Notes under the pieces: model-generated
What the model saw: the letters and a program-made list of their open reading frames with translations, nothing else
The model's database searches: none
What the model was told of the DNA's origin: nothing
Assembly: GCA_021819825.1 (NCBI GenBank)
Contig: JAKAEZ010000006.1
Location: forward strand, 33,404-97,403
Direction of reading: 5' to 3'
DNA from: Planctomycetota bacterium
Lineage (GTDB): Bacteria > Planctomycetota > Phycisphaerae > WQYP01
Length of the DNA stretch: 64,000 nt
In this document: positions 12,301 to 50,976 of the stretch, piece by piece
How positions within the stretch are numbered: position 1 is the first letter of the stretch
Layout of the letters: the number at the start of each line of letters is the position of its first letter
Translations under genes and position numbers: made by a program

Positions 12301-12870
12301 GGGCAGTATTTGGCATTGAGGAGTTAGGAGGCGTTTTACAGTATTGGTCGGTATTGGTCAGTATTGATCAGTAATTTGAGAATTGAGCGGAATGGGCGCG
12401 GGCTGTTGGCTACAACGAACAACGAAACGCTGCGCTTAACGAGCAGCGAGCAACGAAACACACGGGCACTCAACGAGAGACGAGCAACGGGTTTCCGTTC
12501 AGGATTCTTTTCCGCGATCACTGTGGCGGCATGTTATTTACTTGTCAAACCCCGGCGGACCGGAATGCGGCACTTATGCCGTGGAGAGGCTATAGGGGGT
12601 GAGACAGGCGCATAATGAAATAATGAATAATCAATGAGTAATGGCCAAGACGAGGGGGGCTATCCATCCCGGCGCGCACGGGATAAACTCCGGCGGAGGG
12701 GTAGCCGCTGCGGCGGCTGGAAGAGGAGAACAGTAGATAGTTGAGCTGTAGAGCACATAAGGCTGGCCTGGAGAGTTGCCGGTGCTTGCGACCAGCAGCG
12801 GTTGGGCAGGGGGCTGGCGGCGGGTCTGGTGTGGTTTGTCGGCATGGGTGATTGGGGTTAAACTTTTGCC

Positions 12871-33366: not shown

Positions 33367-33632
33367 TCCAACGTGCCTTTCAAAAGAGCTTTCCGTCCAA
33401 ACTGCTCCCGAATCGGTTCGGAAATAATAACACAAAACCAACCGCACGGGCGGCCCGGGCGTCCGCGAACGAGAAGGTCGCTATCGACCACGCACCCGCT
33501 GCCGGCGCTGATCTTAACTACGCTGATCCGATGGGCAATGGCACATCGGGCACAATTGGAAAGCCTGGTGATTTCACAAGAGATAAAAAATACGGTATCT
33601 TCCATACGAATATCACACAGGAGATGATTCTG

Positions 33633-34460
33633 ATGATCCTTCGCCATCAAATCCTGCTTCCACTGATATTTCTGGCTGTGGCATGGGTGCCCGCGGTGGC
33701 ACCTGCGGCGGTGATCTTGGTGGGCAATAAGCATTCGATCAGTGAATACACCGCTGCGGGACAGGTTATTAACCGTGCCCTTATATCGGGGTTGCATCTT
33801 ACGTTTGGCCTTGCGGTATCCGGACGGGATGTATTCGTTGCCAATGAAAACTCCGGAACGATCGGCAAATACAGCCTCTCCGGGCGTGTGATTAAGGCCG
33901 CGCTGATTTCGCACCTGGATGGCCCCGCCGGTATTGCCATCTCAGGAAACGAATTGTTTGTAGCCGACTACCGCGCGGATACTATTGGTGAGTACACCAC
34001 TTCGGGACGTGTGATCAACGCCGCGCTGATTACCGGATTGTACGGCCCTACGGGCATCGCGGTATCGGGCAATGATTTATATATCGTAAATTTCAACTCC
34101 GGTGCCGTCGGCGAATACACCACTGCGGGCCGCGTGGTCCATGCCGTACTAATTTCCCGACTGGCTGGTCCGGATGCCATCGCGGTGTCGGGGAAGGATT
34201 TGTTCGTTGTGGCCGGGGGCGCTGGAACGGTGGGCAAATACACCATCTGGGGTCAGGCGGTCAACGCCGCCCTGATTTCCGGGCTGCACAACCCCTTCGG
34301 CCTGGCCTTGTGGAGAAACAGGATTTTTGTCACCAATGAACGCACCCACGGCACCATCGGCGAATATACCGCAGCCGGGCGCGTGATCAATGCGGCATTG
34401 GCTACGGGACTCAATTATCCCGGCTTCGTCATTGTGTCCAATCAGCGGCGCGGGAGATGA
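33633..34460 (+). CDS. Secreted NHL-repeat six-bladed beta-propeller
   Basis: Signal peptide, then about six 41-aa repeats of form IGEYTxxGxVINAALISGLxxPxGIAVSGxxLFV. AGGAG RBS. Confidence 0.8.
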   Translation: MILRHQILLPLIFLAVAWVPAVAPAAVILVGNKHSISEYTAAGQVINRALISGLHLTFGLAVSGRDVFVANENSGTIGKYSLSGRVIKAALISHLDGPAGIAISGNELFVADYRADTIGEYTTSGRVINAALITGLYGPTGIAVSGNDLYIVNFNSGAVGEYTTAGRVVHAVLISRLAGPDAIAVSGKDLFVVAGGAGTVGKYTIWGQAVNAALISGLHNPFGLALWRNRIFVTNERTHGTIGEYTAAGRVINAALATGLNYPGFVIVSNQRRGR

Positions 34461-34504
34461 AAAAGGGAAATGTTGCTTTGCATAAGTCAGCTTGCGGTCA
34501 AGCT

Positions 34505-34614
34505 GTTATTGCATTTCCGCCGACTGCCGCCGGCGCAAAATGTGCGGGCCAAGCAACAGCATCGCGGTCAAAAGTGCGACAGTGAGGATCAGGCCGTTGC
34601 CTGGCTGGGGCGCA
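34505..34614 (+). repeat. Left copy of a 110-bp direct repeat (orphan copy of the GH44 gene 3' end)
   Basis: 109/110 identical to 46537-46646. Confidence 0.95.
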
Positions 34615-35007
34615 CCAGGCCCGTGGCCCTCGTGCCCATCAAATTTCCGCTGACCCGCCTCGCGGTAAATCATGATGCAAATGCGATCTGGTTGTCGGGC
34701 ATCGCGCGATTATGGTATAAATCGTCTGGCGAATGAGGTTGATAATTGTTTAGTGGAGGTGCCGGCAGGATACTATGCGTTGTATTGGAGCACTTCTCAA
34801 TGCGCGAATGGTGCTTGGACTATTTGTGGCACAGAGTGTTGGCGACTGGATCGCGCATCACGCCCATGCCATCGACACGGTGCCCACGTCGATTGAGACT
34901 GATGCCCGGGAGTTTCAACGCTTCATTGCCAAGCCCTTGTCCTGCGATAGGGAGTTCTGCCAACTCACAACATCTCGATCCCTTGCGTATGTGACGGCGG
35001 CACCTTA

Positions 35008-35676
35008 ATGAAGTCATCAACGGAATATATTTTCTGGCAGCTTGCTGATACCAGCTTTCCCACCGGTGGTTTCGCCCATTCCTCGGGCTTGGAATCCGGA
35101 TGGCGGCATGGTCTGGTGCAGCGCGAAAATATCCACGACTTTTGCCACGATCTGATTCGGCAAGTTTCCATGCAGACCGGGCCGTTTGTGGATGCAGCCA
35201 GCCAAAATCCTTCGCGAATCTGGTCATTGGACAGTTTGTATCATGTCATGTGTGCCAATCATGTCGCGCGCCGGGCCAGTATTCTTCAGGGCGGCGCGAT
35301 GCTGCTGGCAGCCCAGCGAGCATTTGGTCTGGAAGCACTCAAGAGTTTGCAGGAATCGCATTGCACAGGCGAATTTAATGGACATTTCGGCCCTGTATTT
35401 GGAGCGGTCTGCGGGCTGGTGCATATTGAGCCCTTGGCGGCCGTGCGATTGCTGTTGTTTGGTACCGTGCGACAGACGTTGTCGGCAGCAGTGAGACTGG
35501 GAATTATGGGTTCGCTGGAAAGTTTGCCGATGCTCCATGCGATGACGAATCTGATGGATCAGGCCGCCGAATCAGCATTGAATCGGCTGCCGGAACATGC
35601 TGCCATGGCCTGTCCGCTGGTAGATATTTGTCAGAGCAGTCACGACCGTCTCTATTCTCGATTGTTCCAAAGTTAG
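35008..35676 (+). CDS. ureF: Urease accessory protein UreF
   Basis: WQLADTSFPTGGFAHSSGLE, SAAVRLG and C-terminal HDRLYSRLFQS. Confidence 0.93.
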   Translation: MKSSTEYIFWQLADTSFPTGGFAHSSGLESGWRHGLVQRENIHDFCHDLIRQVSMQTGPFVDAASQNPSRIWSLDSLYHVMCANHVARRASILQGGAMLLAAQRAFGLEALKSLQESHCTGEFNGHFGPVFGAVCGLVHIEPLAAVRLLLFGTVRQTLSAAVRLGIMGSLESLPMLHAMTNLMDQAAESALNRLPEHAAMACPLVDICQSSHDRLYSRLFQS

Positions 35677-35697
35677 TTCATTGTAGGAGTCGCGTTT

Positions 35698-36423
35698 ATG
35701 CACAGAATAAATTCCGATGTGGGTCACACCCATGACAAAGCCGATCATCCGGGGTCCTTCCCACAACGGGCAAAGCCGTTGAATCGTGATTTCCAGCAGC
35801 GGGCATATACCGTTGGGATTGGCGGCCCGGTGGGCAGCGGAAAGACGGCTTTGGTGTTGGCGCTGTGCCGACATCTGCGGGAGACCATGAGTCTGGCAGT
35901 GGTAACTAACGACATATTTACCCGGGAAGATGGCGAATTTCTCACGAAGCACGCCGCTCTGCCGGCAGAGCGTATTGCCGCCGTAGAAACAGGAGGGTGT
36001 CCTCATTCCGCGATCCGCGAGGATATCTCCGCCAATTTACTGACGTTAGAGCGTTTGCATCGGCGTTTTTCTCCCGAACTTATGTTTGTTGAGTCCGGGG
36101 GAGACAATCTTGCCGCCGACTTCAGTCGAGAGCTTGCTGACTACACGGTATATGTCATTGATGTGGCCGGCGGCGATAAAATTCCACGAAAAGGGGGGCC
36201 GGGGATTACCCAATCCGATTTGCTGGTAATAAATAAGACCGATCTTGCTTCCGCCGTCGGAGCCGACCTGGCCATCATGCAACGTGACGCTCAACTCATG
36301 CGCCAAGATGGACCGTTTATTTTTGCCCAAGTTAAACATGATCAGGGCGTGGCTGAAATCGCCCGACACATCCTGCACGCGCTGCACCACGCTCTTGGGC
36401 AGCCGCACGATCATGTAGCATGA
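35698..36423 (+). CDS. ureG: Urease accessory GTPase UreG with His-containing termini
   Basis: Motifs [33 protein letters not shown] and INKTD. Confidence 0.96.
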
Positions 36424-36730
36424 CCCTGCTTGTCGGCTACGCCGGAAAGATAGGGGCGTTCCAGCCATCCCGGGGATAGTCTGTACTTGAATGGTCATCA
36501 TCAGATCGCTTGAGTACTTGCAATGCCGATGTGGCCACAGTCCGGCGGCATGCCGGCTGCAAAAGTTCAAGGTCGCATTGGCGCTTCGGCCAGGGCATTG
36601 GTTGTCCGCATAGCAAATGACCAGTCAGAACATCGCTTGCGCGCTAGGTAGGCAATCACCGGATGTGAAGACCTGCGTATATTACACTTAGTAATGAACT
36701 TCGTCGCAATGCGGCTTTTTTCCCAGTGTA

Positions 36731-36746
36731 TGGCATGTGGTTTGCA
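36731..36746 (+). promoter_or_regulatory. Sigma54 (-24/-12) promoter upstream of urtA
   Basis: TGGCATGTGGTTTGCA has exact GG-N10-GC spacing, about 145 bp before urtA. This fits nitrogen regulation. Confidence 0.75.
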
Positions 36747-36891
36747 TCTGTTTACGGTAGTGACTAATCCTGGGGTAACATAACCGGGTTAGATACTTTC
36801 CGGGTGTGGGCCGTTTTGGATCGTTTGATTCACGCGGTAAGCAAAGATGCCCGGAGGTAGATTTTTTGTCGTTCCTTTTTTAGGAGCTGTC

Positions 36892-38178
36892 ATGTCTGGG
36901 TGTCTTTCATCTTCGTTGCAATTTGTTCGGCGGTGCGGCAGGAAACTGTCGTCGGGTTTTTCCCTTACCGCACTTTTGTTAGCGGGCGTCGCCGGTGCGG
37001 GCGCGGCCCACGGAGCCGGGACGGTCAAGGTTGGCATACTGCATTCGCTTACTGGCACGATGGCTATTTCTGAAACATCTCTGCATGATGTTGAACTTAT
37101 GGCGATCCATGAAATCAACGCCAAAGGCGGTGTGCTGGGCAAGCAAATTGATCCGGTGGTTGTAAATCCTGCGTCCAATTGGGATTTATTTGCGCAAGAC
37201 GCCAACACCCTTATTGAAAAAGACAAAGTTAAAGTCATTTTCGGATGCTGGACATCCGTGAGTCGAAAGTCCGTGCTGCCGGTAGTTCAGGCAGACCATG
37301 GCCTGTTAATTTATCCGGTGCAGTACGAAGGTGAAGAATACAGCCCCAATATTTTCTATATGGGGGCCGTGCCCAATCAGCAGTTGATTCCTTCGGTAAA
37401 ATATCTTATGAGCAAATCCGGCGGCAAGCGGAAGCGATTTTTCCTGCTGGGAAGTGATTATGTATTTCCCCGGACCGCCAACGAGATCATTGAAGGCTAT
37501 TTATTAAGCCACGGCGTGCCGAAATCGCGGATTAAAGTAATGTACGTTCCGTTGGGTTACACGGATTTCCAGACGGTTGTGTCCAAAATTAAGGCTTTTG
37601 CTCAGGCTGGGCATGCCTGCGTGCTGTCAACTCTCAATGGCAGCAGCAATGTGCCGTTCTACACCGAATTCGCCAATCAGGGATTAACGGCCGAGTCCTG
37701 TCCGATCATGGCGTATTCCATTGCGGAAGATGAACTGAGATCGATGGATACCACCAAACTTGTAGGCCATTACGCATGTTGGAATTATTTTGAGTCACTG
37801 CGCAGCAAGTCCAACAAAAAATTTGTCCGGGACTTTAAAATGTGGTGTATGTCCAATCATTTACCCGGCGGCATGGCTCGGGTGACCGATGACCCAATTG
37901 AGTGCGCGTACACCGGCGTGTATCTCTGGGCGGCGGCATGTGAGAAAGCCAAATCATTTGCCCCGATGAAAGTGGCTAAAGCTATGATCGGGCTGAAGAT
38001 GATGACGCCCGGCGGAATGGTGAAAGTCGCAAAGAATCACAATCTTTACAAGCCCGTGTATGTCGGTAAGATTCTCGCCGATGGACAGTTCCGGATTGTC
38101 TGGAAGAGCAAAGGTTGGGTCAAACCGGTGGCCTTCAGTCCCTACATCAAGGTGGCGATGAAGAATAAAGCCAATTAA
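36892..38178 (+). CDS. urtA: Urea ABC transporter substrate-binding protein
   Basis: Motifs KVGILHSLTGTMAISE, FGCWTSVSRKSVLP, YPVQYEG, PNQQ and GSDYVFPRT. AGGAG RBS. Confidence 0.93.
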   Translation: MSGCLSSSLQFVRRCGRKLSSGFSLTALLLAGVAGAGAAHGAGTVKVGILHSLTGTMAISETSLHDVELMAIHEINAKGGVLGKQIDPVVVNPASNWDLFAQDANTLIEKDKVKVIFGCWTSVSRKSVLPVVQADHGLLIYPVQYEGEEYSPNIFYMGAVPNQQLIPSVKYLMSKSGGKRKRFFLLGSDYVFPRTANEIIEGYLLSHGVPKSRIKVMYVPLGYTDFQTVVSKIKAFAQAGHACVLSTLNGSSNVPFYTEFANQGLTAESCPIMAYSIAEDELRSMDTTKLVGHYACWNYFESLRSKSNKKFVRDFKMWCMSNHLPGGMARVTDDPIECAYTGVYLWAAACEKAKSFAPMKVAKAMIGLKMMTPGGMVKVAKNHNLYKPVYVGKILADGQFRIVWKSKGWVKPVAFSPYIKVAMKNKAN

Positions 38179-38303
38179 GCCTTCATCGGCGCGGGTTGCC
38201 GCGCCGGATCTCCTTCCAACGCCGAAGGGGCGGACAGGCTTGGAACTTGTCTCGCCCCTTGGCGATCTGGCCTGATGGGCTTAGTACATCGGAGGATGTT
38301 ACT

Positions 38304-39986
38304 GTGAAAATCGCATCGACACTCCTGATCGTATGTGTGGCGATGGTTATTGCCGTGCTGTGTAACAGGGGCCAGGCTTCGGCAATGCCCCAGGTGCCTG
38401 CCCGTGTGCCACTATCCCAGGTCTTGACCGACCTCGGTTCCGATTCCGACGCGCAAGTTTCAGCGGCGCTAAGGCAAATCGCAGCCAGCGGGAATTATCA
38501 CCTGATAACCGCGTTGCAGGCCTATCAGAATGGTCTGCTGGCAATGCATGGCGGACAACTGGTGATGTTCGGTTCTCCGATAATGGATCCGGTCAGGGGA
38601 AAGCTTTATCCCTTGCTTAATGCCCTCACGAACCGGCAAGTGATAGCTCACGGTAAGCCCGTCCTCGCAGATTCCATCCCTGATAACACGCTGGCGGTGC
38701 CAGACTCGGATTCCGATCAGCTTCAGCAGACAATTAACACTCTTTCAATGTATATTCCGGGGCAATCAGCCCGGCGACAGGCAATTGTTGCCTTGGGTAA
38801 CGCCGGAAGTCCGGCTTATCTTCCACCTCTGCAGCAACAATTGACGCAACACCATTCTTCGCGCATTCATCGACTATTGCAGGAAAGTATCGCCCGAATT
38901 CTCCTGCGGCACGGAACTCCGGCGCAAAAAATGCAGGCAGCCGTGTTGCTGGGGCAGATCCATTCCACGCGAGGGCTGGAACTGCTCAAACGCTCCTGGC
39001 GAACGCTCCGGAATGCTCCAACGTCCGCCATGGCCAGGGCCGTGAGAACCTCCATCGACCAGATCAAGGGATATACGAAACTGACCAACCTCCTATTTGA
39101 CTCCTTTGCGGGACTGTCCCTTGCTAGTATCTATGTGCTTATCGCCTTGGGGCTGGCGATTATTTTCGGCCTGATGGGTGTCATCAACATGGCGCAGGGT
39201 GAGTTCCTGACCCTTGGTGCTTTTACCACTTTTGCTGTAGGCGAAATATTCAAAACTTACCTGCCGCCGTCGGATTATAACTGGTACTTTGTCTGTGCGA
39301 TTCCGGCTGCGTTTCTGGTATCGGCACTGGCCGGGGCGATATGCGAATGGACCATCATCCGTCGCTTATATGGTCGTCCGCTGGAAACACTTCTGGCTAC
39401 TTTTGGATTGAGCTTGATTCTCATCGAATTGATTCGAGTGGTCTTTGGGAATAACAATGCCATGATCGCGCCATCGTGGCTTTCCGGCGGACTCTGGATA
39501 ATGCCGGGATTGGTTTTTCCAAAAAACCGCCTTTTTATCATCGTATTTTGCGCCGGATGTATTATCGCGGTCTATGCCCTGATCAGGAAAACCAAGCTGG
39601 GGCTTCTGCTGCGCGCCACGACGCAGGATCGTGAAATGGCGGCGGCTCTGGGTGTGCATACGCGCATGGTGGACATGCTGACGTTTTCCCTTGGTACCGG
39701 GTTGGCGGGACTGGCGGGATGCGCTGTGCCCCTGTTTTCAACCTTGGATCCTCGCATGGGACAATCCTACATTGTGGAGAGTTTTCTGGTGGTCGTAACG
39801 GGAGGCGTGGGCAATCTTGCCGGGGTTATTTGTGCGGGGGCCGGGCTGGGTTTCCTGGAAAAATTTATTGAGCCATGGGTGCAGCCGGTTTACGGCAAGG
39901 TGTTTGTTTTGATTATTGTTATTGCTTTTCTGCAATGGAAGCCGTCGGGGTTATTTGCAGCCAAGGGCCGGTCGATGGACCATTAG
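38304..39986 (+). CDS. urtB: Urea ABC transporter permease with N-terminal extracytoplasmic helical-repeat domain
   Basis: ALGLAIIFGLMGVINMAQGE, LYGRPLETLLAT and FLVVVTGGVGNL. GTG start after GGAGG. Confidence 0.92.
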   Translation: MKIASTLLIVCVAMVIAVLCNRGQASAMPQVPARVPLSQVLTDLGSDSDAQVSAALRQIAASGNYHLITALQAYQNGLLAMHGGQLVMFGSPIMDPVRGKLYPLLNALTNRQVIAHGKPVLADSIPDNTLAVPDSDSDQLQQTINTLSMYIPGQSARRQAIVALGNAGSPAYLPPLQQQLTQHHSSRIHRLLQESIARILLRHGTPAQKMQAAVLLGQIHSTRGLELLKRSWRTLRNAPTSAMARAVRTSIDQIKGYTKLTNLLFDSFAGLSLASIYVLIALGLAIIFGLMGVINMAQGEFLTLGAFTTFAVGEIFKTYLPPSDYNWYFVCAIPAAFLVSALAGAICEWTIIRRLYGRPLETLLATFGLSLILIELIRVVFGNNNAMIAPSWLSGGLWIMPGLVFPKNRLFIIVFCAGCIIAVYALIRKTKLGLLLRATTQDREMAAALGVHTRMVDMLTFSLGTGLAGLAGCAVPLFSTLDPRMGQSYIVESFLVVVTGGVGNLAGVICAGAGLGFLEKFIEPWVQPVYGKVFVLIIVIAFLQWKPSGLFAAKGRSMDH

Positions 39987-40045
39987 CCGACATGCATCCC
40001 GCGCTTTCCCTGCACTGAATCTCCGATAGGAAGAGACGGTAATTT

Positions 40046-41464
40046 GTGATCAGCCCCTCATCCGATAAAACTTCTCAGCCACCGGCAGCCGCCGATTCTG
40101 ACGGCCGGATTCCCGCGCTGCCACGACTGAATCCTCGGGTCAGGCAGTTGCGGATTAGCGCGATAATCGCGGTGGTGGCGTTATTTTATATATTGATACC
40201 GGTACTAAACAGTGTGGGCGCGGTTTCAGATTTAAGCGTCAATATTCTTGGCCGGTACCTGTGCTTCGCGATCGTTGCTTTGGGCATTGATTTAATCTGG
40301 GGATACGCGGGGTTACTGTCTCTGTGCCAGGCTTTTTTCTTCTGCCTCGGCGGTTATGCCATCGGCATGTTCTTGAGCCTGCCGGAAGGGGGCGGGCAGG
40401 TTCAGAAAGCCTACAACAACATTCCGCAATTTTTCTTCTTTAATAATCAATCAACGCTGCCGACATTCTGGAAGCCTTTTGCATCGCTTCCATTTGCTCT
40501 TGCCATGGGTATTTTGATTCCTGCGGTCGTTGCCGGTATTTTCGGATTCTTCATTTTCCGCAGCCGCGTGCGCGGCGTTTATTTTGCCATTATCACACAG
40601 GCGTTGGCCTGGGCGGCGTATCTGCTGTTTTGCCGAAATGAGTTGTTACTGGGGGGGACCGACGGTTTGAATAATTTTTATCCGCCGCTGCAGCACGATC
40701 ATCATTGGATACTGGGTCTGTATTTCCTCACGGCCGCGATTCTGGGATTGCTGTACCTGGCGCTTTTCAAGCTTACCAAAAGCCGTTTCGGCAGAATATT
40801 GGTGGCTATCCGCGATCGGGAAGTGCGTCTGCACTTTGCCGGCTATAAACCCTACGCGTTTAAGGTCTTCGCGTTTGTCATCGCAGCGGTGATCGCGGCT
40901 ATAGGAGGGATGCTATATGTGCCGCAAAATGGGATTATTACACCCGGCACGATGGCCGTGGAATCGTCTATACTTATGGTTGTGCTGGTGGCGGTCGGCG
41001 GGCGCGGGCGATTATGGGGCGCAATTATTGGCGCACTGGTCGTGCGCTACGCCTACAGCATTCTTAGCTCGGATATGCCGGCGATGTGGTCGTTTTTTGA
41101 GGGCGGCCTGTTTATTGCCGTGACGCTGCTATTTTCCAACGGGCTGGTGGGGCTATGGGATGAACTCGAAGAGAAAATGCGGATGCGCCATGGAGGCCTA
41201 CAACTGGCCCTCTCGGTAATCCCGCTGGCAAGCGTCCTGGGATTTGTCCTGTGTGAGGCGCTTGGCATCATGCCGAAGGCGCTGCAACAGACAATTGCCA
41301 CACCATGGAGTGTCATGCCCGATATTCCAATCAAATTTATTCTACTGGCGGGAATTCTCATTTCGGTCGCCCTCGCACGGTGGCTGGTAAGGTTCATCGG
41401 GCGTCCGCGTGGCAGCGTCGTTGTGCCGGTATCGCACACGGCGGTGGAGGAGGTGCACGCATGA
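40046..41464 (+). CDS. urtC: Urea ABC transporter permease
   Basis: GIDLIWGYAGLLSL, FRSRVRGVYFAIITQA, AIRDRE and VAVGGRG, plus extra C-terminal TM helices. Confidence 0.92.
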   Translation: MISPSSDKTSQPPAAADSDGRIPALPRLNPRVRQLRISAIIAVVALFYILIPVLNSVGAVSDLSVNILGRYLCFAIVALGIDLIWGYAGLLSLCQAFFFCLGGYAIGMFLSLPEGGGQVQKAYNNIPQFFFFNNQSTLPTFWKPFASLPFALAMGILIPAVVAGIFGFFIFRSRVRGVYFAIITQALAWAAYLLFCRNELLLGGTDGLNNFYPPLQHDHHWILGLYFLTAAILGLLYLALFKLTKSRFGRILVAIRDREVRLHFAGYKPYAFKVFAFVIAAVIAAIGGMLYVPQNGIITPGTMAVESSILMVVLVAVGGRGRLWGAIIGALVVRYAYSILSSDMPAMWSFFEGGLFIAVTLLFSNGLVGLWDELEEKMRMRHGGLQLALSVIPLASVLGFVLCEALGIMPKALQQTIATPWSVMPDIPIKFILLAGILISVALARWLVRFIGRPRGSVVVPVSHTAVEEVHA

Positions 41465-42243
41465 TACATGCCCCGACAGACTCCTCGGCTTCTGCTGCGG
41501 GAACGTCGACCGCCTACACGGTGTTCTTAGAGGATGTGACGGTCGATTTTGACGGCTTCCGGGCGTTGGACATTTATCGCTTCGGCGTGTTTCGCAATGA
41601 ATTGCGCGTAGTGATTGGTCCCAATGGGGCTGGGAAGACCACGTTGTGCGACGTTATCAGTGGTAAAACGCATCCCAGCGGAGGCCGAGTGTTTTTTAAA
41701 GGAATGGATATTACCCATCGTCGCGACACCGACATAGCAGCGCTGGGTGTGGGGCGAAAATTTCAGACGCCGACAATTTTTCCCAGTCTGACGGTCTATG
41801 AAAATATGGACTTGGCGTTACCGGGCAGGAGGAGGGTTTTTCAGAATATATTCAGACACGAATCCCCTGAAGCTAAGGAAAAAATATTCAATATTTTACG
41901 CCGTGTGCGGCTGCTGGATTTGGCGCATTGTCCGGCTGGTACTTTGAGTCACGGGCAGCGCCAGTGGCTGGAAATAAGTATGCTCATGGCTGCGGAACCA
42001 GAACTCCTGCTGGTAGATGAGCCCGCGGCCGGTCTTACCGACGCCCAGACAGACGTGACCGCAGAGTTGCTGCTGGAACTAAAGGGGCGTCACACCATTA
42101 TTGTCATCGAACACGATATGGAGTTTGTGCGCCGCCTTAATTCCCGTGTGACCGTTCTGAATGAAGGAAAGGTGCTCTCGGACGGCTCCATGGAACAGGT
42201 TCAGCGGGATCCAAAAGTTATTGAAGCGTATCTGGGGCGATAA
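41461..42243 (+). CDS. urtD: Urea ABC transporter ATP-binding protein
   Basis: Motifs GPNGAGKTT, GRKFQTP, LSHGQRQWLEI and EHDM. Confidence 0.93.
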   Translation: MIHAPTDSSASAAGTSTAYTVFLEDVTVDFDGFRALDIYRFGVFRNELRVVIGPNGAGKTTLCDVISGKTHPSGGRVFFKGMDITHRRDTDIAALGVGRKFQTPTIFPSLTVYENMDLALPGRRRVFQNIFRHESPEAKEKIFNILRRVRLLDLAHCPAGTLSHGQRQWLEISMLMAAEPELLLVDEPAAGLTDAQTDVTAELLLELKGRHTIIVIEHDMEFVRRLNSRVTVLNEGKVLSDGSMEQVQRDPKVIEAYLGR

Positions 42244-42269
42244 TTTAAAGGCATGGCGAGGACCTGACG

Positions 42270-42977
42270 TTGAGTGAAATATTGCTGTCAATCCGGAATC
42301 TGGCGTTTTCATACGGTGCCGTGCAGGCCCTGCGCGGCGTGGATATGGACGTTTCCCGGGGAAGTATCACCTGCCTGATGGGACGTAACGGCGTGGGAAA
42401 AACCACCCTGGTGGGAGCAATCATGGGGTTGTTGAAATCCGACTCCGGGGTAATAACGTTTGACGGGCAGAACGTCACTAAGTGGCCGGCGTTTAAGCGG
42501 GCCAGACATGGCATTGGGCTTGTTCCCCAAGGGCGGCGGATATTTCCCAAGCTTACGGTAAACGAAAATCTGATCGTCGGAATGCAGGCGGCAGGCGGCC
42601 GGACAAAAACAATTCCGGATTCGGTGGTGGAAATGTTTCCGATTATCAAAACCATGTCCGGACGATTGGGCGGCGACCTTTCCGGCGGTCAACAGCAGCA
42701 ACTGGCGATTGCCCGCGCCCTGGTGGGCAGGCCGAAGATCCTCCTCTTGGACGAACCCACCGAGGGTATCCAGCCCAATATTATTAAGCAGATCGGTCAG
42801 GTGCTGCGAAATTTGGTGAAAGAACACAACATGACGGTTCTGCTCGTGGAGCAATATGTCGATTTTGTCCGTGAATACGGGGATCACTTCTACATCATGA
42901 ATCGGGGGAGAATTGTCGCCAACGGAAATACGGAGCAGTTGCATGCCGGTGTGATCCAGGAGCATTTAAGTGTTTGA
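42270..42977 (+). CDS. urtE: Urea ABC transporter ATP-binding protein
   Basis: Motifs GRNGVGKTT, LSGGQQQQLAI and DEPTEGIQP. Confidence 0.93.
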   Translation: MSEILLSIRNLAFSYGAVQALRGVDMDVSRGSITCLMGRNGVGKTTLVGAIMGLLKSDSGVITFDGQNVTKWPAFKRARHGIGLVPQGRRIFPKLTVNENLIVGMQAAGGRTKTIPDSVVEMFPIIKTMSGRLGGDLSGGQQQQLAIARALVGRPKILLLDEPTEGIQPNIIKQIGQVLRNLVKEHNMTVLLVEQYVDFVREYGDHFYIMNRGRIVANGNTEQLHAGVIQEHLSV

Positions 42978-43082
42978 TCCACCCGAGAAAATGCGGATAC
43001 TCATTGAAGCTTCCGTCGGCTCGATCGGGATTGGGCCGTACACAACCGGCCGGGGCGCCATCGGATTTTCCGGAGCGTTCCT

Positions 43083-43985
43083 ATGAAATCCCCGACGATA
43101 TGCCGAGATCGATTCTCCGAAGTTTCAAATGACCGTTGCGCCCCAGGCGATACACCGGTTCGACCGCAGCGTGCCGCCGTTTTCGGCCATGCCGAATTCG
43201 CACTGCAGGGAGATAGCACACGCGTGGTATCCCTTGGCAGTCGCGCGCCCTTACAACTGCTTGCACCGCGCGCCGGCAGTGACGTGGGGTGGCTGGTAAT
43301 GGGAAGTCTTGGGGGCGGCCTGCTAGGCGGTGACCACATCAAGGTGGATTTGCATGTACAGCAAGGCGCAGGGGCGTATGTCACGACCCAGGCTTCTACC
43401 AAGATTTTTAAATCCGGAGGTTGCGGGGCTGTCCGCCAAAGTCTTGATGCGCTGATAGCCCCGGATGCCTCCATGCTATTGGCTCCTGATCCTGTGGTCT
43501 GCTTTGCCCAATCAGATTATCAGCAGGAACAGAAATTCTATCTGCACGCCGGCAGTTCATTGCTGGCAGTTGATTGGTTTACCAGTGGGCGGTGGCAATG
43601 CGGCGAACGCTGGAACTTTGCGCGCTATATAAGTCGTCAGAGTGTCTATGTTAACGGGGATCCTATTTTGCTTGACGCCTTGGAGTTGGATAATACGGTG
43701 TCCCATATTTCCCGAACGGTCGGATTCAATGTGGTGAACGCTTTGGCGACGGTGATATGCCTCGGGCCGAGATTTGCGGGTGCCGCCCTTGCCCTGCTGC
43801 AGCGGCTGCATAATACGCCGATACAAACAAAAGACTCCGTGATGTTTGGCATCAGTGAACTCGCTGATGGATTTCTTCTGCGGGTGGGGGGCGATTCAGC
43901 GGAAAACGTCGGCCGCTTTCTCCAGAAAGAGTTGGTCTCGGCTGCCGCCGCAATGGGCGTAGAACTCTGGCAGCGTAAATGGTAA
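43083..43985 (+). CDS. ureD: Urease accessory protein UreD/UreH
   Basis: GGGLLGGD, TTQASTKIF, PDPVVCFA and DWFTSGR...GERW. Confidence 0.9.
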   Translation: MKSPTICRDRFSEVSNDRCAPGDTPVRPQRAAVFGHAEFALQGDSTRVVSLGSRAPLQLLAPRAGSDVGWLVMGSLGGGLLGGDHIKVDLHVQQGAGAYVTTQASTKIFKSGGCGAVRQSLDALIAPDASMLLAPDPVVCFAQSDYQQEQKFYLHAGSSLLAVDWFTSGRWQCGERWNFARYISRQSVYVNGDPILLDALELDNTVSHISRTVGFNVVNALATVICLGPRFAGAALALLQRLHNTPIQTKDSVMFGISELADGFLLRVGGDSAENVGRFLQKELVSAAAAMGVELWQRKW

Positions 43986-43997
43986 AGGATTTGGAAC

Positions 43998-44756
43998 ATG
44001 CACCTGACACCGCGTGAACTGGACAAATTGGTCTTGCATCAGGCCGGGTACCTGGCACAGAAACGCCTGGCGCGCGGGCTGCGGCTGAATTTGCCGGAGT
44101 CCATTGCTCTCATCGCCGCCCAGTTGCTGGAATTGATCCGCGACGGTCAAAGCGTTGCCCAACTCATGGAAATAGGACGCAGCATGCTGGGCCGTCGCCA
44201 AGTTATGGAGGGTGTTGCTGAAATGATTGCCGAGGTGCAGGTTGAAGGAACTTTTCCGGATGGGACCAAGCTGGTTACTGTGCACCACCCGGTGGTCCGG
44301 GAAAATGGGGATCTTGCCCTGGCGCTTTACGGCAGTTTCTTGCCGGTGCCTGACGCTGCCTTATTTCAAACGCATCACACGCCTTGCATGCCGGGGCAGA
44401 TCTGTCCGAGCGATGGAGACATAACGCTTAATGCCCAGCGCCCAACGGCGACGGTCATGGTAGTTAATACAGGTGATCGCCCCATTCAGGTGGGCAGCCA
44501 CTATCACTTCATTGAAGTTAATAAAGCATTGAAGTTTTCACGCGGTGCGGCCTACGGCATGCGACTGGATATACCCGCGGGCACAGCCGTGCGGTTTGAG
44601 CCTGGCGAGGGAAAAACGGTACAGCTAGTTGCCATTGCAGGCGGTAAGGTTATTAGCGGCGGCAATAATTTGGCATCGGGTCCAGTGTCGGATCAGGGCC
44701 GCTTAGAGGCCTTGCGCCGCGTGGCACAGGAAGGATTTCAATGTACGGAGCATTAA
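43998..44756 (+). CDS. ureAB: Fused urease gamma/beta subunit
   Basis: Gamma part [11 protein letters not shown]...[17 protein letters not shown]. Beta part [15 protein letters not shown]...[15 protein letters not shown]. Confidence 0.95.
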
Positions 44757-44757
44757 C

Positions 44758-46473
44758 ATGAGCAACCAGATTTCACGCACGGCCTATGCGGGTATGTATG
44801 GTCCTACCACCGGCGATACCGTGCGCCTGGCCGATACCGAATTGATTCTTCGCGTTGAACGGGATCTCACACATTACGGGGATGAATGCAAATTCGGCGG
44901 AGGGAAAGTATTGCGCGAGGGAATGGGTCAGGCCGCAGGCGTTGATCCGGCCGCGGCATTGGATCTGCTGATCACCAACGCGCTGATTGTGGATTATACC
45001 GGTATCTATAAGGCGGATGTGGGAATAAAAAGCGGCCGCATCTCCGCAATTGGTAAGGCTGGCAATCCCAATGTTATGGCAGGTGTAACGCCGGGAATGA
45101 TTTTCGGCGTTACAACCGAAGTCATCGCCGGCGAAGGACTGATACTTACCGCCGGTGGCATAGACGCCCACATCCATTTCATTTGCCCGCAGTTGGCACA
45201 TGAGGCGATTGCCTCTGGCCTGACCACCATGATCGGCGGCGGCACAGGCCCCGCCACGGGGACATGCGCAACGACCTGCACGCCCGGAGCCTTTCATATC
45301 GAAGCAATGCTGGGCGCAACGGATGATCTGCCGTTAAACTTCGGCTTCACCGGAAAGGGGAATGCGGCGTCACCGGAGGGTCTGGGAGCGCAAATTGAAG
45401 CCGGCGCGATTGGCCTGAAACTTCATGAAGATTGGGGTACCACTCCCGCCGCCATTGATTGCTGCCTGACCGTAGCCGAAGATTATGACGTTCAGGTGAC
45501 TATTCACACCGATACGCTTAACGAATCGGGCTTTGTTGAAAGTTCCATCTCCGCGTTTCGAGGGCGTACGATACACACCTATCATTCCGAGGGTGCTGGC
45601 GGCGGCCATGCGCCGGATATTCTCCGGGTTTGCGGACAAAGTAACGTCTTGCCGAGTTCCACCAACCCCACGCGCCCGTTTACCGTCAACACCCTTGACG
45701 AACATCTTGATATGTTGATGGTATGCCATCACCTCGATTCTGATCTTCCGGAGGATGTCGCTTTTGCGGAAAGCCGTATCCGCGGCGAAACGATCGCCGC
45801 TGAAGATATCCTCCATGATCTTGGAGCCATCAGCATCATCAGTTCCGACTCTCAGGCCATGGGTCGGGTGGGGGAAGTCATTACCCGCACATGGCAAACA
45901 GCGGATAAAATGCGTCGACAACGCGGTTCGCTTCCGGAGGATGTCCCAGGTGACGATAATTTCCGCATCCGTCGCTATGTGGCCAAGTACACGATTAACC
46001 CGGCAATAGCCCATGGTGTGGGGCATCTGATTGGCTCAATTGAAATCGGCAAGCTTGCCGATCTTGTGCTCTGGAGGCCCGCGCTTTTTGGGGTCAAACC
46101 GGAGTTGGTAATTAAGGGCGGCTTTGTGGCCTGGGCCCAGATGGGAGACCCCAATGCCTCCATTCCTACTCCCCAGCCGGTAATTATGCGGCCCATGTTC
46201 GGGGCCTTCGGCAACGCACCGGCCAAAACCAGTCTGGCGTTTGTAAGTGCGGCCGCCGCCGCCAGCGGCGTAACTGAACATTATGGCCTGAAAAAAAACA
46301 TTGCAGCCGTAAAGGCGTGCCGCGATCTCACCAAGCGGGATATGAAACTTAACGATGTGCTGCCGGTTATTGAAGTCGATCCGGAAACCTATCGCGTGTC
46401 CGCCGATGGGGTCCACCTGACCTGCCGGCCCGCGGAAATATTGGGTCTGGCTCAACGCTATTTTTTGTTTTAA
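44758..46473 (+). CDS. ureC: Urease alpha (catalytic) subunit
   Basis: Motifs [42 protein letters not shown] and SDSQAMGR. Confidence 0.98.
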
Positions 46474-46536
46474 TTTTTTGGGATTCAGTGCCTGTACCGA
46501 GATGTCAGAGCATCAGGCGTCGCGGTGCGCAGCTCC

Positions 46537-46646
46537 GTTATTGCATTTCCGCCGACTGCCGCCGGCGCAAAATGTGCGGGCCAAGCAACAGCATCGCGGT
46601 CAAAAGTGCGACAGTGAGGATCAGGCCGTTGCCTGGCTTGGGCGCA
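46537..46646 (+). repeat. Right copy of the 110-bp direct repeat (in-gene 3' end of GH44)
   Basis: 109/110 identical to 34505-34614, offset 12,032 bp. Confidence 0.95.
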
Positions 46647-48259
46647 TCGACCAGATTCAAGGTGCTCACGCTGTACGCGGGCATGGTATAGGTGAAAAAA
46701 GCGGGATTGGTAATCGTTACATCGCCGGCAAACATGGGGCTGGCGGCGCTGCTGGTCAACTGATACACCTGTGCCTGGTCAAAGGTTTTGGTGTGATCCA
46801 AGTTAATGGTTACCGTGATGGCATTGGCGGTTTTATTAATGGCAATCACCACCATGTGCGACGGATCATTGGAATCCAGACTGGCATAAACTGAAGTATC
46901 CGCCACATCACTGGTACTGGCGGATATGGACGTATCGCCAAATGTCGCTCCCTTGCCATTATAGTTGCGGTACATGGCAAACGCGGCCTGCGTATACGGT
47001 TCGCTGGACGCCAAGGCCCATTGGTTGGCGGAATACACGCCGTACTTTCCGAATATCCCCAGCACATCCGCTTCCGCGATTGCACCGGAAATATCCGAAC
47101 CTCCGCCGTAGTTATATTCGCTGAAGGAAAGCTTCGTTCCGGAATAATTGGCGTTAATTTCGCTTTGAAGTGTCGGCAGCAGATCAATAGCTTTGCCGCC
47201 GAGGCTTTGGGTAATCCAGCTTGTTTCAACATACGTCGGGTCCCAAAGCGAGCGCGGTGCCTGCAATCGGGCTGCTACCACTGCGGGATCGGATGAGCTT
47301 TCGGTGGTAATTCGCGTGCCATCGCCCGTGGCTTCCGGGTACCAATGCAGATCCAGCACATCCAGCAGGCGAAGCTTGGCGGCGATGCCCGCCAAGTGCA
47401 TTTGCGCCAGATAGCACGAGAGAAAATTGCCGTAGGGTTTTCCGGTATAGGGATCAATGGCGGCATTATCAGCGGTGGAATCAGTTGCATTTTGTAACGT
47501 CTGATATCCCTCCCAGCCGTAGCTCACCGGACCATACACCAAGCTGGTGGGCGCAATGCTTTTAATCATGGTGGAATATTGAATCGTTTTTTGCAGCAAC
47601 TCCGCATACGTCACGGGCGTGGGATGTACTTCCGGATGGGTGCTGGACCACAAATCCGGTTCGTTGTCGAGGTCAAAATTAATCGGCGTGCTGCTGCCGG
47701 CGGTAAAGTCCTGTGGATAATTGGTTTTAACCCAGTTCACAAATTGGCTTTGGTATACCGGGTTGGTGGACATGCCGGTAACCGATGCCGGCGCGTTGGC
47801 ATATTCGGGGACAAAATAAGGTGAAGTGGCTGGATTGGCGGTAGGGCTGGCGTCGCCGGATTTGGCGGCAGAGACATAGCCTGCCATCGGGACGGTCAGG
47901 AGTAATCCCGCGCCATTGGCGGCAGCATTGTTAATCCCGGGAATCATGGCACCGCCGGGCGTTGATCCGCCGCCCAAAAATGTATCGTTGGAATATTTAT
48001 AATCACTTCCCGCATTGGAGTAATTGTTGGTCCAGTTGTAGGCGGTCCAGCGATTTCCGCCGAGGCGGTCATACGTCAGGTTGGAGCCGGAGGTAATGGG
48101 TTGATTAATGCCATAAATGTATCGGGAGATGGCGTGGACATTTTGCGAGGCGTCAATAGTAAAAGTAACCGCGTTCTGGACCTGAGCGGGGTGCACTGAA
48201 ATGGTTGCCGCCAAAAGCGCGCAAATGCTCAAAGCCTGCCGGTTCATCCGAATTGTCAT
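46538..48259 (-). CDS. Secreted glycoside hydrolase family 44-like endoglucanase with PEP-CTERM-like C-terminal anchor
   Basis: RLGGNRWTAYNWTNNYSNAGSD, LDNEPDLW...TH, LDLHWYPE, APRSLWD and FSEYNYGG. The tail is APKP, a TM helix and RRRQ. ATG 48259 follows GGAGAGG. Confidence 0.88.
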   Translation of the reverse strand: MTIRMNRQALSICALLAATISVHPAQVQNAVTFTIDASQNVHAISRYIYGINQPITSGSNLTYDRLGGNRWTAYNWTNNYSNAGSDYKYSNDTFLGGGSTPGGAMIPGINNAAANGAGLLLTVPMAGYVSAAKSGDASPTANPATSPYFVPEYANAPASVTGMSTNPVYQSQFVNWVKTNYPQDFTAGSSTPINFDLDNEPDLWSSTHPEVHPTPVTYAELLQKTIQYSTMIKSIAPTSLVYGPVSYGWEGYQTLQNATDSTADNAAIDPYTGKPYGNFLSCYLAQMHLAGIAAKLRLLDVLDLHWYPEATGDGTRITTESSSDPAVVAARLQAPRSLWDPTYVETSWITQSLGGKAIDLLPTLQSEINANYSGTKLSFSEYNYGGGSDISGAIAEADVLGIFGKYGVYSANQWALASSEPYTQAAFAMYRNYNGKGATFGDTSISASTSDVADTSVYASLDSNDPSHMVVIAINKTANAITVTINLDHTKTFDQAQVYQLTSSAASPMFAGDVTITNPAFFTYTMPAYSVSTLNLVDAPKPGNGLILTVALLTAMLLLGPHILRRRQSAEMQ

Positions 48260-48752
48260 GGAAAATTCCTCTCCACCGCCGATATTCATGGGGCTTATGT
48301 GTGTGACCGTGGCGTGATCATACATTGGCCCAATCAGCGGCGAGATAAGCAGTCAACCCGTGAGGGAACGCTTATCTGGTAAATGGAGTGTAACATGTTG
48401 ATGTGGGCGCATCAATAAAATATCTTCCATTTTTTTGCAACCAAAATCAGCCTGTGGCTGAGATTGCGGGGGCCTTCCAAGAATCAAAAGACTGCCAATT
48501 TGGCCCAATTTCCGCGCTAACACGGGATTTTTTCACTCCCACGAGGCAGCGCCCCCGGTGAGGAGCCATGGAGCCTGCTCCGGGCCGTCCGAGATTTTAC
48601 CTATTTTTCGCTTGACCCAATCGCCTTTAGCGGTGATAGTTTTAGTACAGCGCCGAAGCTGTCGTGGCCCGGGGTTCGATTATTGGATGGTCGATGGCGT
48701 CACGAGGCTGCGGCATGCCGGTCAGGATGTTTGGCTACGGAGGCTTTCACCT

Positions 48753-50166: not shown

Positions 50167-50976
50167 ATGACCGACAGGCTTTCAGCCGCGTTTGCCGCAC
50201 CAAGTCGCAATCGGCGGGCGCTATTGTGCCCCTTTGTGACCGCCGGTTATCCGAGCGTTGACCTGCTGGGACCTGTCTTGGAATCGCTGCAACGGGCCGG
50301 TGCTGGTTGTATTGAATTGGGAATTCCCTTTTCTGATCCCATTGCCGATGGGCCGACCATACAGGAAAGCTATCGCCTGGCGCTGCAAAATGGTGCTACA
50401 GTACCACGCATCATGCAGTCGGTGGAAAAAATTCGCGGCCTTGGTTTTTCGCTGCCCATCATGGCCATGGCCAGCTTCAGCATTATTTTCAAACATGGGG
50501 CTGATGCGTTTGCGTCAGCGTGTGCCAATGCGGGAATCGATGGGTTGATTTTGCCGGATGTACCCCTGGAGGAAGCACCGGCGCTGGTTGCTGTGTTAGA
50601 CAAACATCATCTCAAAAGCAGTCTTTTGATCGCTCCTACAACAGCTCCGGATCGACGGGCAAAAATTGCCGCCTTATGCACCGGGTTTATTTATTATCTG
50701 TCGGTAACCGGTATAACCGGAGAACGACAATCCCTGCCGGCTGATGTGCCGTTAAATCTTAAAGTGTTGCGTGCAATGACACCGCACCCCATTTGTGTAG
50801 GATTTGGAATTTCCCGTCCGGATCAGGTGGCGGAACTGGCCTCGCTGGCCGATGGCATCATTGTGGGGTCAGCCATTATCAAGACCATTACCCGCGAACT
50901 GGCTAAGCCGGCACCGGATGTTGCCGCCGCGGTTGGGACGTTCGCAGCGGAACTTGCCGCCGGATTAACGCAATAA
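50167..50976 (+). CDS. trpA: Tryptophan synthase alpha chain
   Basis: Motifs TAGYP, IELGIPFSDPIADGPTIQ, LIAPTT, GITGER, VGFGIS and ADGIIVGSA. Confidence 0.97.
   Translation: MTDRLSAAFAAPSRNRRALLCPFVTAGYPSVDLLGPVLESLQRAGAGCIELGIPFSDPIADGPTIQESYRLALQNGATVPRIMQSVEKIRGLGFSLPIMAMASFSIIFKHGADAFASACANAGIDGLILPDVPLEEAPALVAVLDKHHLKSSLLIAPTTAPDRRAKIAALCTGFIYYLSVTGITGERQSLPADVPLNLKVLRAMTPHPICVGFGISRPDQVAELASLADGIIVGSAIIKTITRELAKPAPDVAAAVGTFAAELAAGLTQ

Follow-up and report, generated by a model that had tools for sequence, protein, structure and literature searches.

A strain-variable urease and urea-uptake block between two copies of a GH44 gene end in an uncultured planctomycete

The window analyzed here is a stretch of 64,000 nucleotides (nt) from an uncultured planctomycete (NCBI GenBank assembly GCA_021819825.1, contig JAKAEZ010000006.1, positions 33,404–97,403 of the forward strand). 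It contains a 12-kb block of urease (ure) and urea-uptake (urt) genes that is situated between two nearly identical copies of the 3′ end of a gene for a glycoside hydrolase of family GH44. The block is a real indel of recent date that is bounded by repeats, and near-identical strains have a precise empty site in its place; events of this kind are already known. The origin we favor, with a probability of about 0.58, is that a strain-variable ure/urt operon, located at a rearrangement hotspot at the GH44 3′ end, reached its present position by recent recombination within the species, and that this recombination was general and not site-specific.

The genome of the window, termed G000, is a metagenome-assembled genome (MAG) of 72 contigs and 2,492,035 bases that is 67.6% complete, and the locus is on contig C39. 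Nine other genomes of the genus were available, among them G002, G003, G005, G006, G008 and G009. Four metagenome runs were analyzed as Logan contigs (k = 31). X1 is the probable source run and is labelled mine drainage metagenome, X7 is from the same study, and X2 and X3 are sediment metagenomes of another study. Gene families were assigned with Pfam and NCBIfam profiles.

The repeat, its empty site and its two alleles

The repeat is found at positions 34505–34614 and 46537–46646 of the window. The copies are 110 nt long, are identical at 109 positions and have a start-to-start spacing of 12,032 nt, as determined by a repeat search and a base-by-base comparison. A first-pass annotation of the window, made from the sequence letters, had described this repeat and had identified it as the end of the GH44 gene, and both statements are borne out. 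On the minus strand each copy consists of one nt, the stop codon (34506–34508 and 46538–46540), 35 codons and one nt more of the GH44 gene. The sole mismatch inside the repeat is G at 34607 against T at 46639. Outside the repeat, positions 34615 and 46647 differ, 34616 and 46648 agree, and the next three positions compared all differ. The elements that define the two ends are as follows.

33531–34460, plus strand: NHL-repeat/Vgb-lyase-like beta-propeller gene (PF24684, PF01436), the left neighbor of GH44 in the empty-site form
34505–34614, minus strand: left, orphan copy of the GH44 3′ end (stop codon and 35 codons); its identity to the X2-type allele described below extends to 34616
46537–46646, minus strand: right copy of the repeat, the 3′ end in use by GH44 (repeat search, base comparison)
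46538–48325, minus strand: GH44 glycoside hydrolase gene, 595 amino acids (aa), with a PEP-CTERM-like C-terminal tail (PF12891, E = 4.4e-47)

The orthologous GH44 tails of other species of the genus are identical to the repeat at only 68–81 of 110 positions, a range that leaves out G005 (30 aligned bases) and G002 (6 aligned bases), and a chance origin of the 109/110 match in 64 kb is therefore excluded. A search of the 72 contigs of the MAG with the 110-mer shows two copies and no third, hence the sequence is not a common dispersed repeat. A dispersed repeat family was also rejected on the basis that the other PEP-CTERM-like tails of the MAG have just the motif in common.

By self-BLAST of the MAG, the repeat is one of seven same-contig direct repeats of at least 50 bp and at least 95% identity that are 1.5–120 kb apart. 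A 320-bp direct repeat of 99.4% identity is present on contig C31 at positions 311–630 and 50367–50686, with copies 50 kb apart, and its right copy overlaps a tyrosine-recombinase match (C31, 50008–50499). The C31 pair is a candidate, from its sequence features, for a genuine integrative element in the same MAG.

Two metagenome contigs display the locus without the block. In record 11 of X2 (1,525 nt, with one mismatch on one side and three on the other) position 34615 is followed directly by 46648, and record 18 of X3 (2,616 nt, with 5 and 44 mismatches) joins 34607 to 46640. Both join the NHL gene, one tail and GH44 directly, each omits exactly 12,032 bases, and GH44 is intact. The X2 and X3 strains are 97.5–99.7% identical to G000 at the locus. 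A contig at k = 31 can cross the repeat only where there are no branches from the ure side, and the two contigs thus represent true NHL-tail-GH44 chromosomes of the same species. At a likeness of at least 90%, the depth over the block in X2 and X3 is 0–4.4 with patchy cover, and the flanks have a depth of 3.3–11.5. The absence of the block from X2 and X3 is read solely from the two joining contigs; block parts without cover in X2, X3 and X7 were not counted. The empty site that the first-pass annotation had proposed to look for in relatives is therefore present, in near-identical strains, and is precise. Its exact length and the intact GH44 gene also agree with the earlier proposal of a repeat-bounded unit whose repeats would allow its precise loss.

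The two copies of the repeat are different alleles. The X2 joint omits 34616–46647 (ends CA..AT) and the X3 joint omits 34608–46639 (ends GG..TT). At the 34607/46639 site both tails carry G. From there on the X3 tail continues as the right-hand sequence; in the X2 tail the base at the position of 46647 is C, as read from the joint coordinates and not from the contig letters. At the position of 46647 there is T in G009, G002, G003, X3 and the right copy of G000, and the C is thus a young change within the species. The left copy of G000 is followed by C at 34615 and C at 34616, so that the orphan copy is identical to the X2-type allele at 112 of 112 positions. The working copy of G000 differs from the X2 allele at two of the 112 positions, 46639 and 46647. 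Divergence here is about 0.1–0.5% per site, and one base in three would match; with divergence this low it is improbable that the private single-nucleotide polymorphism (SNP) of X2 falls by chance on the first base outside the repeat and also matches it.

From these bases we conclude that the joint between 34616 and 34617 would have arisen recently on an allele like that of X2, and that the present end of GH44 would be from another allele. The allele difference points to recombination between strains and not to duplication in place or to ancient concerted evolution. As to the earlier claim of a recent insertion, the junction is indeed young, the orphan copy having a within-species SNP, but the DNA of the block itself is old and native, as seen from the relatives.

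Origin of the arrangement

GH44 is found in eight of the 41 genomes in which it was sought (G000 and 40 relatives). Seven of the eight are within the genus, i.e. G000 and six of the nine others. In G009 the gene order is trpA-orf535-GH44-[ureC...ureF]-phosphoesterase-MFS. The block is at the same GH44 end as in G000, and there is no NHL gene and no second tail. At the right junction of G009 the ureC and GH44 stop codons overlap and the GH44 tail ends RRQSY followed by the stop. On the left side, homology to G000 begins at 34690 and is preceded by an unrelated stretch of 214 bp up to the phosphoesterase start. Other relatives have different DNA at the same gene end. In G008 the GH44 tail directly follows the NHL gene and the region is collinear with G000 33557–34595; G002 has the phosphoesterase, a 34-aa NHL remnant and GH44; G003 and G005 have an mnmE-like GTPase gene and nifS downstream of GH44. 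G006 has the NHL gene at 96% identity followed by other DNA, and has no GH44. Judged from gene order, the GH44 3′ end is a synteny breakpoint in several independent ways, and homology between the arrangements regularly stops at or near the stop codon. Both adjacencies of the G000 locus are thus found separately, ureC-GH44 in G009 and NHL-GH44 in G008 (and in G002 with the NHL remnant). The composite NHL-tail-ure-tail-GH44 is in none of the nine other genomes of the genus.

The 214-bp stretch of G009 contains a perfect palindrome of about 46 nt (AAAAGGTACCTGACACC...GGTGTCAGGTACCTTTT; locus L014, about 12800–12900) between the phosphoesterase start and the ure promoter region. The position of this palindrome corresponds to that of the NHL gene and orphan tail in G000.

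The block shows no sign of foreign origin in its composition or divergence. The guanine-plus-cytosine fraction is flat, 0.50–0.57 both inside and outside the block. Identity at four-fold sites between G000 and G009 is 51–57% for the MFS and phosphoesterase genes, 52–70% for the ten block genes, and 65–73% for GH44, orf535 and trpA. The divergence of the block equals that of its flanks, thus the block DNA is no recent foreign arrival.

In the family, ureC was detected in seven of the 45 genomes searched (E ≤ 1e-30), and in six of 17 genera. The same ure/urt gene order is present in G022, G041 and G045, and G014 has ureFG inverted; all of these are among other neighbors. No flanking direct repeat of at least 24 nt is found at the block ends in the five other ure loci (the G045 locus ends in urtA and its left end is not covered), and the repeat is therefore not a property of a ure "element". 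A metagenome scan with UrtA gave 18 loci with 55–64% identity, none from the genus of G000. The G011 ureC is split near residue 370 (G011, contig C2, 23113–24824). In G003, ureC fragments (residues 374–418 and 509–571) are fused in an 89-aa open reading frame on another contig (L023, G003 contig C235, 3172–3471), where it sits between a large glycosidase-like gene and a prepilin-like gene. Such gene remains show that loss of urease is under way in several of the family's lineages.

From these data we infer the following sequence of events, including the illegitimate joint and the pathway of recombination. Two old alternative arrangements would exist at the GH44 end, ure-GH44 (as in G009) and NHL-GH44 (as in G008, G002, X2 and X3). 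The ure/urt DNA, together with its adjacent GH44 3′ end, would have entered an "empty" NHL-GH44 chromosome. One end would have recombined by homology within GH44, and the other end would have formed an illegitimate joint inside GH44, between 34616 and 34617, 112 nt from the gene end. The resident GH44 end (stop codon and 35 codons) would have been left as an orphan beside the NHL gene, and the incoming copy would now terminate the working GH44. The resulting 110-bp repeats would permit precise loss of the block by host recombination, possibly with excision as a circle. Since the parental arrangements share homology no further than the gene end, the left edge of the repeat would fall at the stop codon. 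Its location one nt past the stop codon would not need an att site, since the GH44 end has old, species-variable synteny breakpoints.

Several points weigh against this origin. No read or read pair has both junctions, and an empty chromosome plus a 12-kb circle gives the same graph in X1. The repeat unitig of X1 (46537–46638) has a depth of 47.1, or 1.54 times the single-copy value, where about 61 (two times) is expected for two copies. The MAG is just 67.6% complete. Of the two SNPs that make up the allele argument, one is known from the coordinates of a joint and not from contig letters. Within the species, the proposed donor form (ure-GH44 lacking the NHL gene) was not seen, and X2 may have lost the block or may never have had it. 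The action of a recombinase in trans would also result in this structure, with the native end displaced to the far end and the element copy completing the gene. Joints formed by homology-facilitated illegitimate recombination normally delete recipient DNA; a 112-nt duplication is topologically possible, but we know of no documented case.

Unlikely in our estimation is that the operon behaves as an integrase-free cassette in a Phycisphaerae population. Host recombination between the 110-bp repeats would release a 12,032-bp circle with one tail, and this circle, or a linear block with the GH44 end, would re-enter "empty" strains by recombination at the tail. If this were true, a nitrogen-acquisition trait would circulate among near-identical strains with no dedicated gene for mobility, and the most recent entry would have left its trace in the orphan tail.

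We regard as quite unlikely an island similar to a cis-mobilizable element (CIME), i.e. a recombinase-less mobilizable island that is, or is derived from, an integrative element with an attP containing the GH44 3′ end, and that a tyrosine or serine recombinase encoded elsewhere would integrate and excise at the tail. The structure of the locus is what such an island would give, in that the repeats correspond to the target gene 3′ end, the native end has been moved to the far side, the copies are different alleles and the empty site is precise. The MAG also has at least seven tyrosine recombinases on other contigs: PF00589 gives seven matches, on contigs C2, C7, C23, C31 and C71, and none on C39 (serine recombinases were not searched separately). 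However, Pfam analysis of every open reading frame shows no recombinase, excisionase, transfer or replication gene in the 12 kb, where all matches are to ure and urt families; the first-pass annotation was correct that no integrase or transposase family is matched between the repeats. In addition, there is no third copy of the tail sequence in the MAG, the spacers at the block ends have no homologue in the genus, the five other loci of the operon lack flanking repeats, and the breakpoints of G009 and G003, which are at or near the gene end, differ and give no fixed core. Composition is native and divergence from G009 is the same as that of the flanks. The earlier proposal that an integrative element had inserted at a sorting-signal sequence is thus not sustained, since there is no recombinase in the block or on C39, no break in composition, and the operon is an old one of the family. 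G009, in which the block adjoins the same GH44 end and both the repeat and the NHL gene are lacking, is the very case that had been named as contradicting that proposal.

An improbable explanation is that the composite NHL-tail-ure-tail-GH44 is old and was ancestral to G000, G002 and G008, that gene conversion kept the two tails alike, and that the empty sites of G008, G002, X2 and X3 each arose by a separate deletion between the repeats. The gene pool has contained the block since the split from G009, and G002, G008 and G006 are closer to G000 than is G009 in the flanking genes, so several losses of the block are needed in any case. Recombination between the repeats would always give the same empty site, and in other genomes ureC is in decay, being fragmentary in G003 and split in G011. 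But the C at 34615, just outside the left copy, matches the young X2 SNP and so dates the joint to within the species, and conversion cannot reach outside the repeat. An old composite is found in none of the nine other genomes of the genus, and a deletion from the present G000 would most likely have T at 46639, where X2 and X3 have G.

In X1 the contigs stop and restart precisely 30 nt within each end of the repeat, the position that a graph with k = 31 requires, and the 102 bases common to both copies are collapsed into a single unitig that has two entries and two exits. The X1 depths are 30.4 on the NHL side, 30.8–30.9 over the block and 30.6 over GH44. These equal depths indicate one genome with all three parts and give no sign of loss or amplification, and the change in coverage for which a check had been suggested is absent from this run. 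Although the branched repeat node, its depth of 1.54 times and the incompleteness of the MAG would be compatible with an assembly artefact or a free episome, in which the 12-kb segment was wrongly threaded through a collapsed 110-bp repeat, this is very improbable, because the equal depths do not suit a two-strain mixture, a 304-nt contig of X7 (34445–34748, 0 mismatches) spans the whole left copy and its junction, the independent G009 assembly has ureC abutting the GH44 end and so supports the right junction, and the two bases at the single mismatch are each tied to a different exit from the repeat.

Genes of the block, the joints and the GH44 tail

The features between the NHL gene and GH44, other than the repeat copies, are as follows.

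34461–34504, no strand: native NHL-GH44 intergenic spacer of the empty site, kept beside the orphan copy; aligns with the G008 spacer and is crossed by the X2 and X3 contigs
34506–34673, minus strand: mini-open reading frame of 55 aa, 20 unrelated codons plus the orphan tail (translation)
34615–34689, no strand: 75-bp spacer, from the orphan tail to the conserved ure upstream region, with the proposed illegitimate joint between 34616 and 34617
34690–35007, plus strand: ure operon upstream region, conserved with G009 (blastn/alignment)
35008–35676, plus strand: ureF, urease accessory gene (PF01730)
35698–36423, plus strand: ureG, urease accessory gene (PF02492)
36847–38178, plus strand: urtA, urea ABC importer (PF13433)
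38196–39986, plus strand: urtB, urea ABC importer (PF02653)
40046–41464, plus strand: urtC, urea ABC importer (PF02653)
41305–42243, plus strand: urtD, urea ABC importer (PF00005)
42270–42977, plus strand: urtE, urea ABC importer (PF00005)
43083–43985, plus strand: ureD (PF01774)
43998–44756, plus strand: fused ureAB, gamma and beta subunits (PF00547 and PF00699)
44758–46473, plus strand: ureC, alpha subunit (PF00449 and PF01979; NF009671 supports the urease assignment)
46474–46536, no strand: 63-bp spacer from the ureC stop to the GH44 stop, without counterpart in G009

The profiles confirm the gene content ureF-ureG-urtABCDE-ureD-ureAB-ureC given in the first-pass annotation. The block has the structural subunits, UreD, UreF and UreG, and a five-component Urt importer, and these define a urease with Urt uptake. 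On the evidence of these families the block should import urea by way of UrtABCDE and hydrolyze it by UreAB-UreC matured with UreD, UreF and UreG. There is no ureE in the block; the rest of the G000 genome was not searched for this gene.

UrtB has a chain length of 596 aa. Its permease domain is limited to residues 305–579 and weak HEAT-repeat matches are near residues 192–224. G009 has retained the long N-terminal extension (alignment from residue 11), and so, for the most part, have other genera (from residues 35–92). A comparison of positions 33000–48600 with Rfam gives one match, 5_ureB_sRNA, which is antisense in ureC at 44911–45201 (minus strand; 94 bits, gathering threshold 40). This match probably reflects conservation of the urease alpha coding sequence and not a planctomycete small RNA gene.

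The NHL gene region is collinear with the NHL-GH44 region of G008 and with the empty-site contigs of X2 and X3. The 55-aa reading frame on the minus strand at 34506–34673 exists as first described. It has no signal peptide and no family match in Pfam or NCBIfam, and is most likely a by-product of the joint. The 75-bp spacer (34615–34689) and the 63-bp spacer (46474–46536) give matches at chance level only in the ten genomes of the genus (E = 0.15–0.9 over both spacers). A kinship of the 75-bp spacer with the upstream stretch of G009 was rejected, the resemblance of about 50% being no better than that of neutral DNA at such divergence.

By eye, a promoter-like site, TTGTCG-18-TGGTATAAA, is seen at 34692–34724. 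The consensus promoter scan misses this site, as the last base of the -10 element is not T, and promoter and terminator scans at both junctions gave nothing on the relevant strands. The ure upstream region has no alignment beyond the genus in the genomes compared (G022, G041 and G014). A 77-aa open reading frame at 34775–35008 was rejected as a gene, since it has no family match and the gaps in its alignment with G009 are not multiples of three; the segment is treated as leader or regulatory DNA.

The GH44 gene is not an EpsB equivalog: NF041873 gives 217 bits against a cut-off of 1250. The tail reads DAPKPGNG in the right copy and GAPQPGNG in the left copy, followed by the hydrophobic helix LILTVALLTAMLLLG and then by RRR. 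A PEP-CTERM signal consists of a PEP motif, a hydrophobic helix and a basic cluster at the extreme C-terminus. The curated PEP-CTERM profiles of Pfam and NCBIfam (TIGR02595, PF07589) match neither of the G000 tails at E ≤ 10, and the G009 tail gives E = 5.3 and 8.1 bits with TIGR02595, below the cut-off of 16. The orthologous tails of G009 and G003 have DAPEPG, which is a true PEP. In a motif scan of the MAG, 48 stop-to-stop frames of at least 40 aa end with a tail of the same build, and many of these read VPEP. Exosortase (PF09721) was not found in the 67.6%-complete G000, but is present in two copies in each of five out of five more complete genomes of the genus. From the residue pattern, "PEP-CTERM-like" is a fair description of architecture and is unproven as membership; the earlier designation of the tail thus stands for its architecture (PKP/PQP, helix, RRR) and lacks a match to a curated profile.

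G009 and G003 keep the glutamate of the PEP motif; its place is taken by Q in the orphan copy and the X2 and X3 strains, and by K in the GH44 gene in use in G000. In the species of G000 the sorting signal may be impaired or differently recognized. GH44 itself shows decay in relatives: the gene of G008 has lost about 690 bp internally, that of G002 contains an in-frame TAA, and in G003 a tail reading frame of 76 aa is all that remains. Identity at four-fold sites of GH44 between G000 and G002 or G008 is 61–68%, where neighboring genes show 78–97%. This low identity points to alleles of a surface enzyme that are old and have been exchanged. At the other end of the gene, positions 48145–48591 (the GH44 5′ end and upstream sequence) are replaced by 618 other letters in contigs of X1 (depth 35.2) and X2. 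This may represent either a second variable segment or a related organism.

Related systems and significance

The H47 genomic island of Escherichia coli is 13 kb in length, is recombinase-less, has long direct repeats and is lost between these by host functions (Azpiroz and Lavina 2017, PMC5426353). Its excision as a circle and its re-integration were shown by the polymerase chain reaction (PCR) and are RecA-independent, and its repeats are imperfect and att-like (PMC5426353). By analogy, H47 appears to be the closest of the described systems. Both have cargo without a recombinase, long flanking direct repeats and a precise deletion product. Unlike H47, the G000 case is known from sequence alone, its repeat is a duplicated gene end and its cargo is an old operon of housekeeping type.

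Homology-facilitated illegitimate recombination was reportedly described by de Vries and Wackernagel in 2002, Prudhomme et al. in 2002 and Meier and Wackernagel in 2003. In natural transformation a foreign segment is brought in by one homologous anchor and one illegitimate joint (summarized in PMC2884548), and transformation-driven rearrangements through repeats have been documented (PMC3784515). As in the process so summarized, the segment in G000 would have been brought in with a single arbitrary breakpoint and no mobility genes. The differences from that summary are that a conspecific donor is proposed, that the joint is inside the anchor gene, and that 112 nt are duplicated, whereas there recipient DNA is deleted.

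Integrative elements, e.g. prophages in icd or tRNA genes, can bring with them a duplicate of the 3′ end of the gene in which they insert. The G000 locus is similar in that the repeats are the target gene 3′ end, the gene is intact and the native end is displaced to the far side. Such elements, however, encode an integrase and are foreign in composition or phylogeny, and neither is true of the G000 block.

In Thiomonas from acid mine drainage, a "urea island" with ure and urt genes is strain-variable, being incomplete or absent in close relatives (PMC4585258). Strain variability of ure/urt and the mine-drainage habitat are common to the two cases. In Thiomonas the urea island is part of a larger island that has transposases, compositional bias and a miscRNA flank, and urea amidolyase genes are present as well (PMC4585258). 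Species-level comparisons have shown variable segments between direct repeats that are explained by recombination, with most repeats shorter than 30 bp and segments that are small (Touzain et al. 2010, PMC2884548). The G000 locus is a repeat-ended indel polymorphism of this sort, but the repeat is 110 bp and the segment 12 kb. A search of the literature on Phycisphaerae with urease or acid mine drainage showed no such locus described among the matches listed.

The locus provides a base-precise example of near-identical strains of an uncultured planctomycete that differ in urea use. It also indicates that an att-like repeat can arise from ordinary recombination of two alternative gene arrangements, and it gives a warning for annotation, i.e. 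flanking repeats alone are not sufficient to call an integrative element. The repeat offers simple PCR targets with which to follow gain and loss of the block in mine-drainage and sediment communities. The capacity for urease is a strain-level and unstable property of this lineage, being present in seven of 45 genomes of the family and with copies in decay, and inference of urea use for a species from MAGs can mislead.

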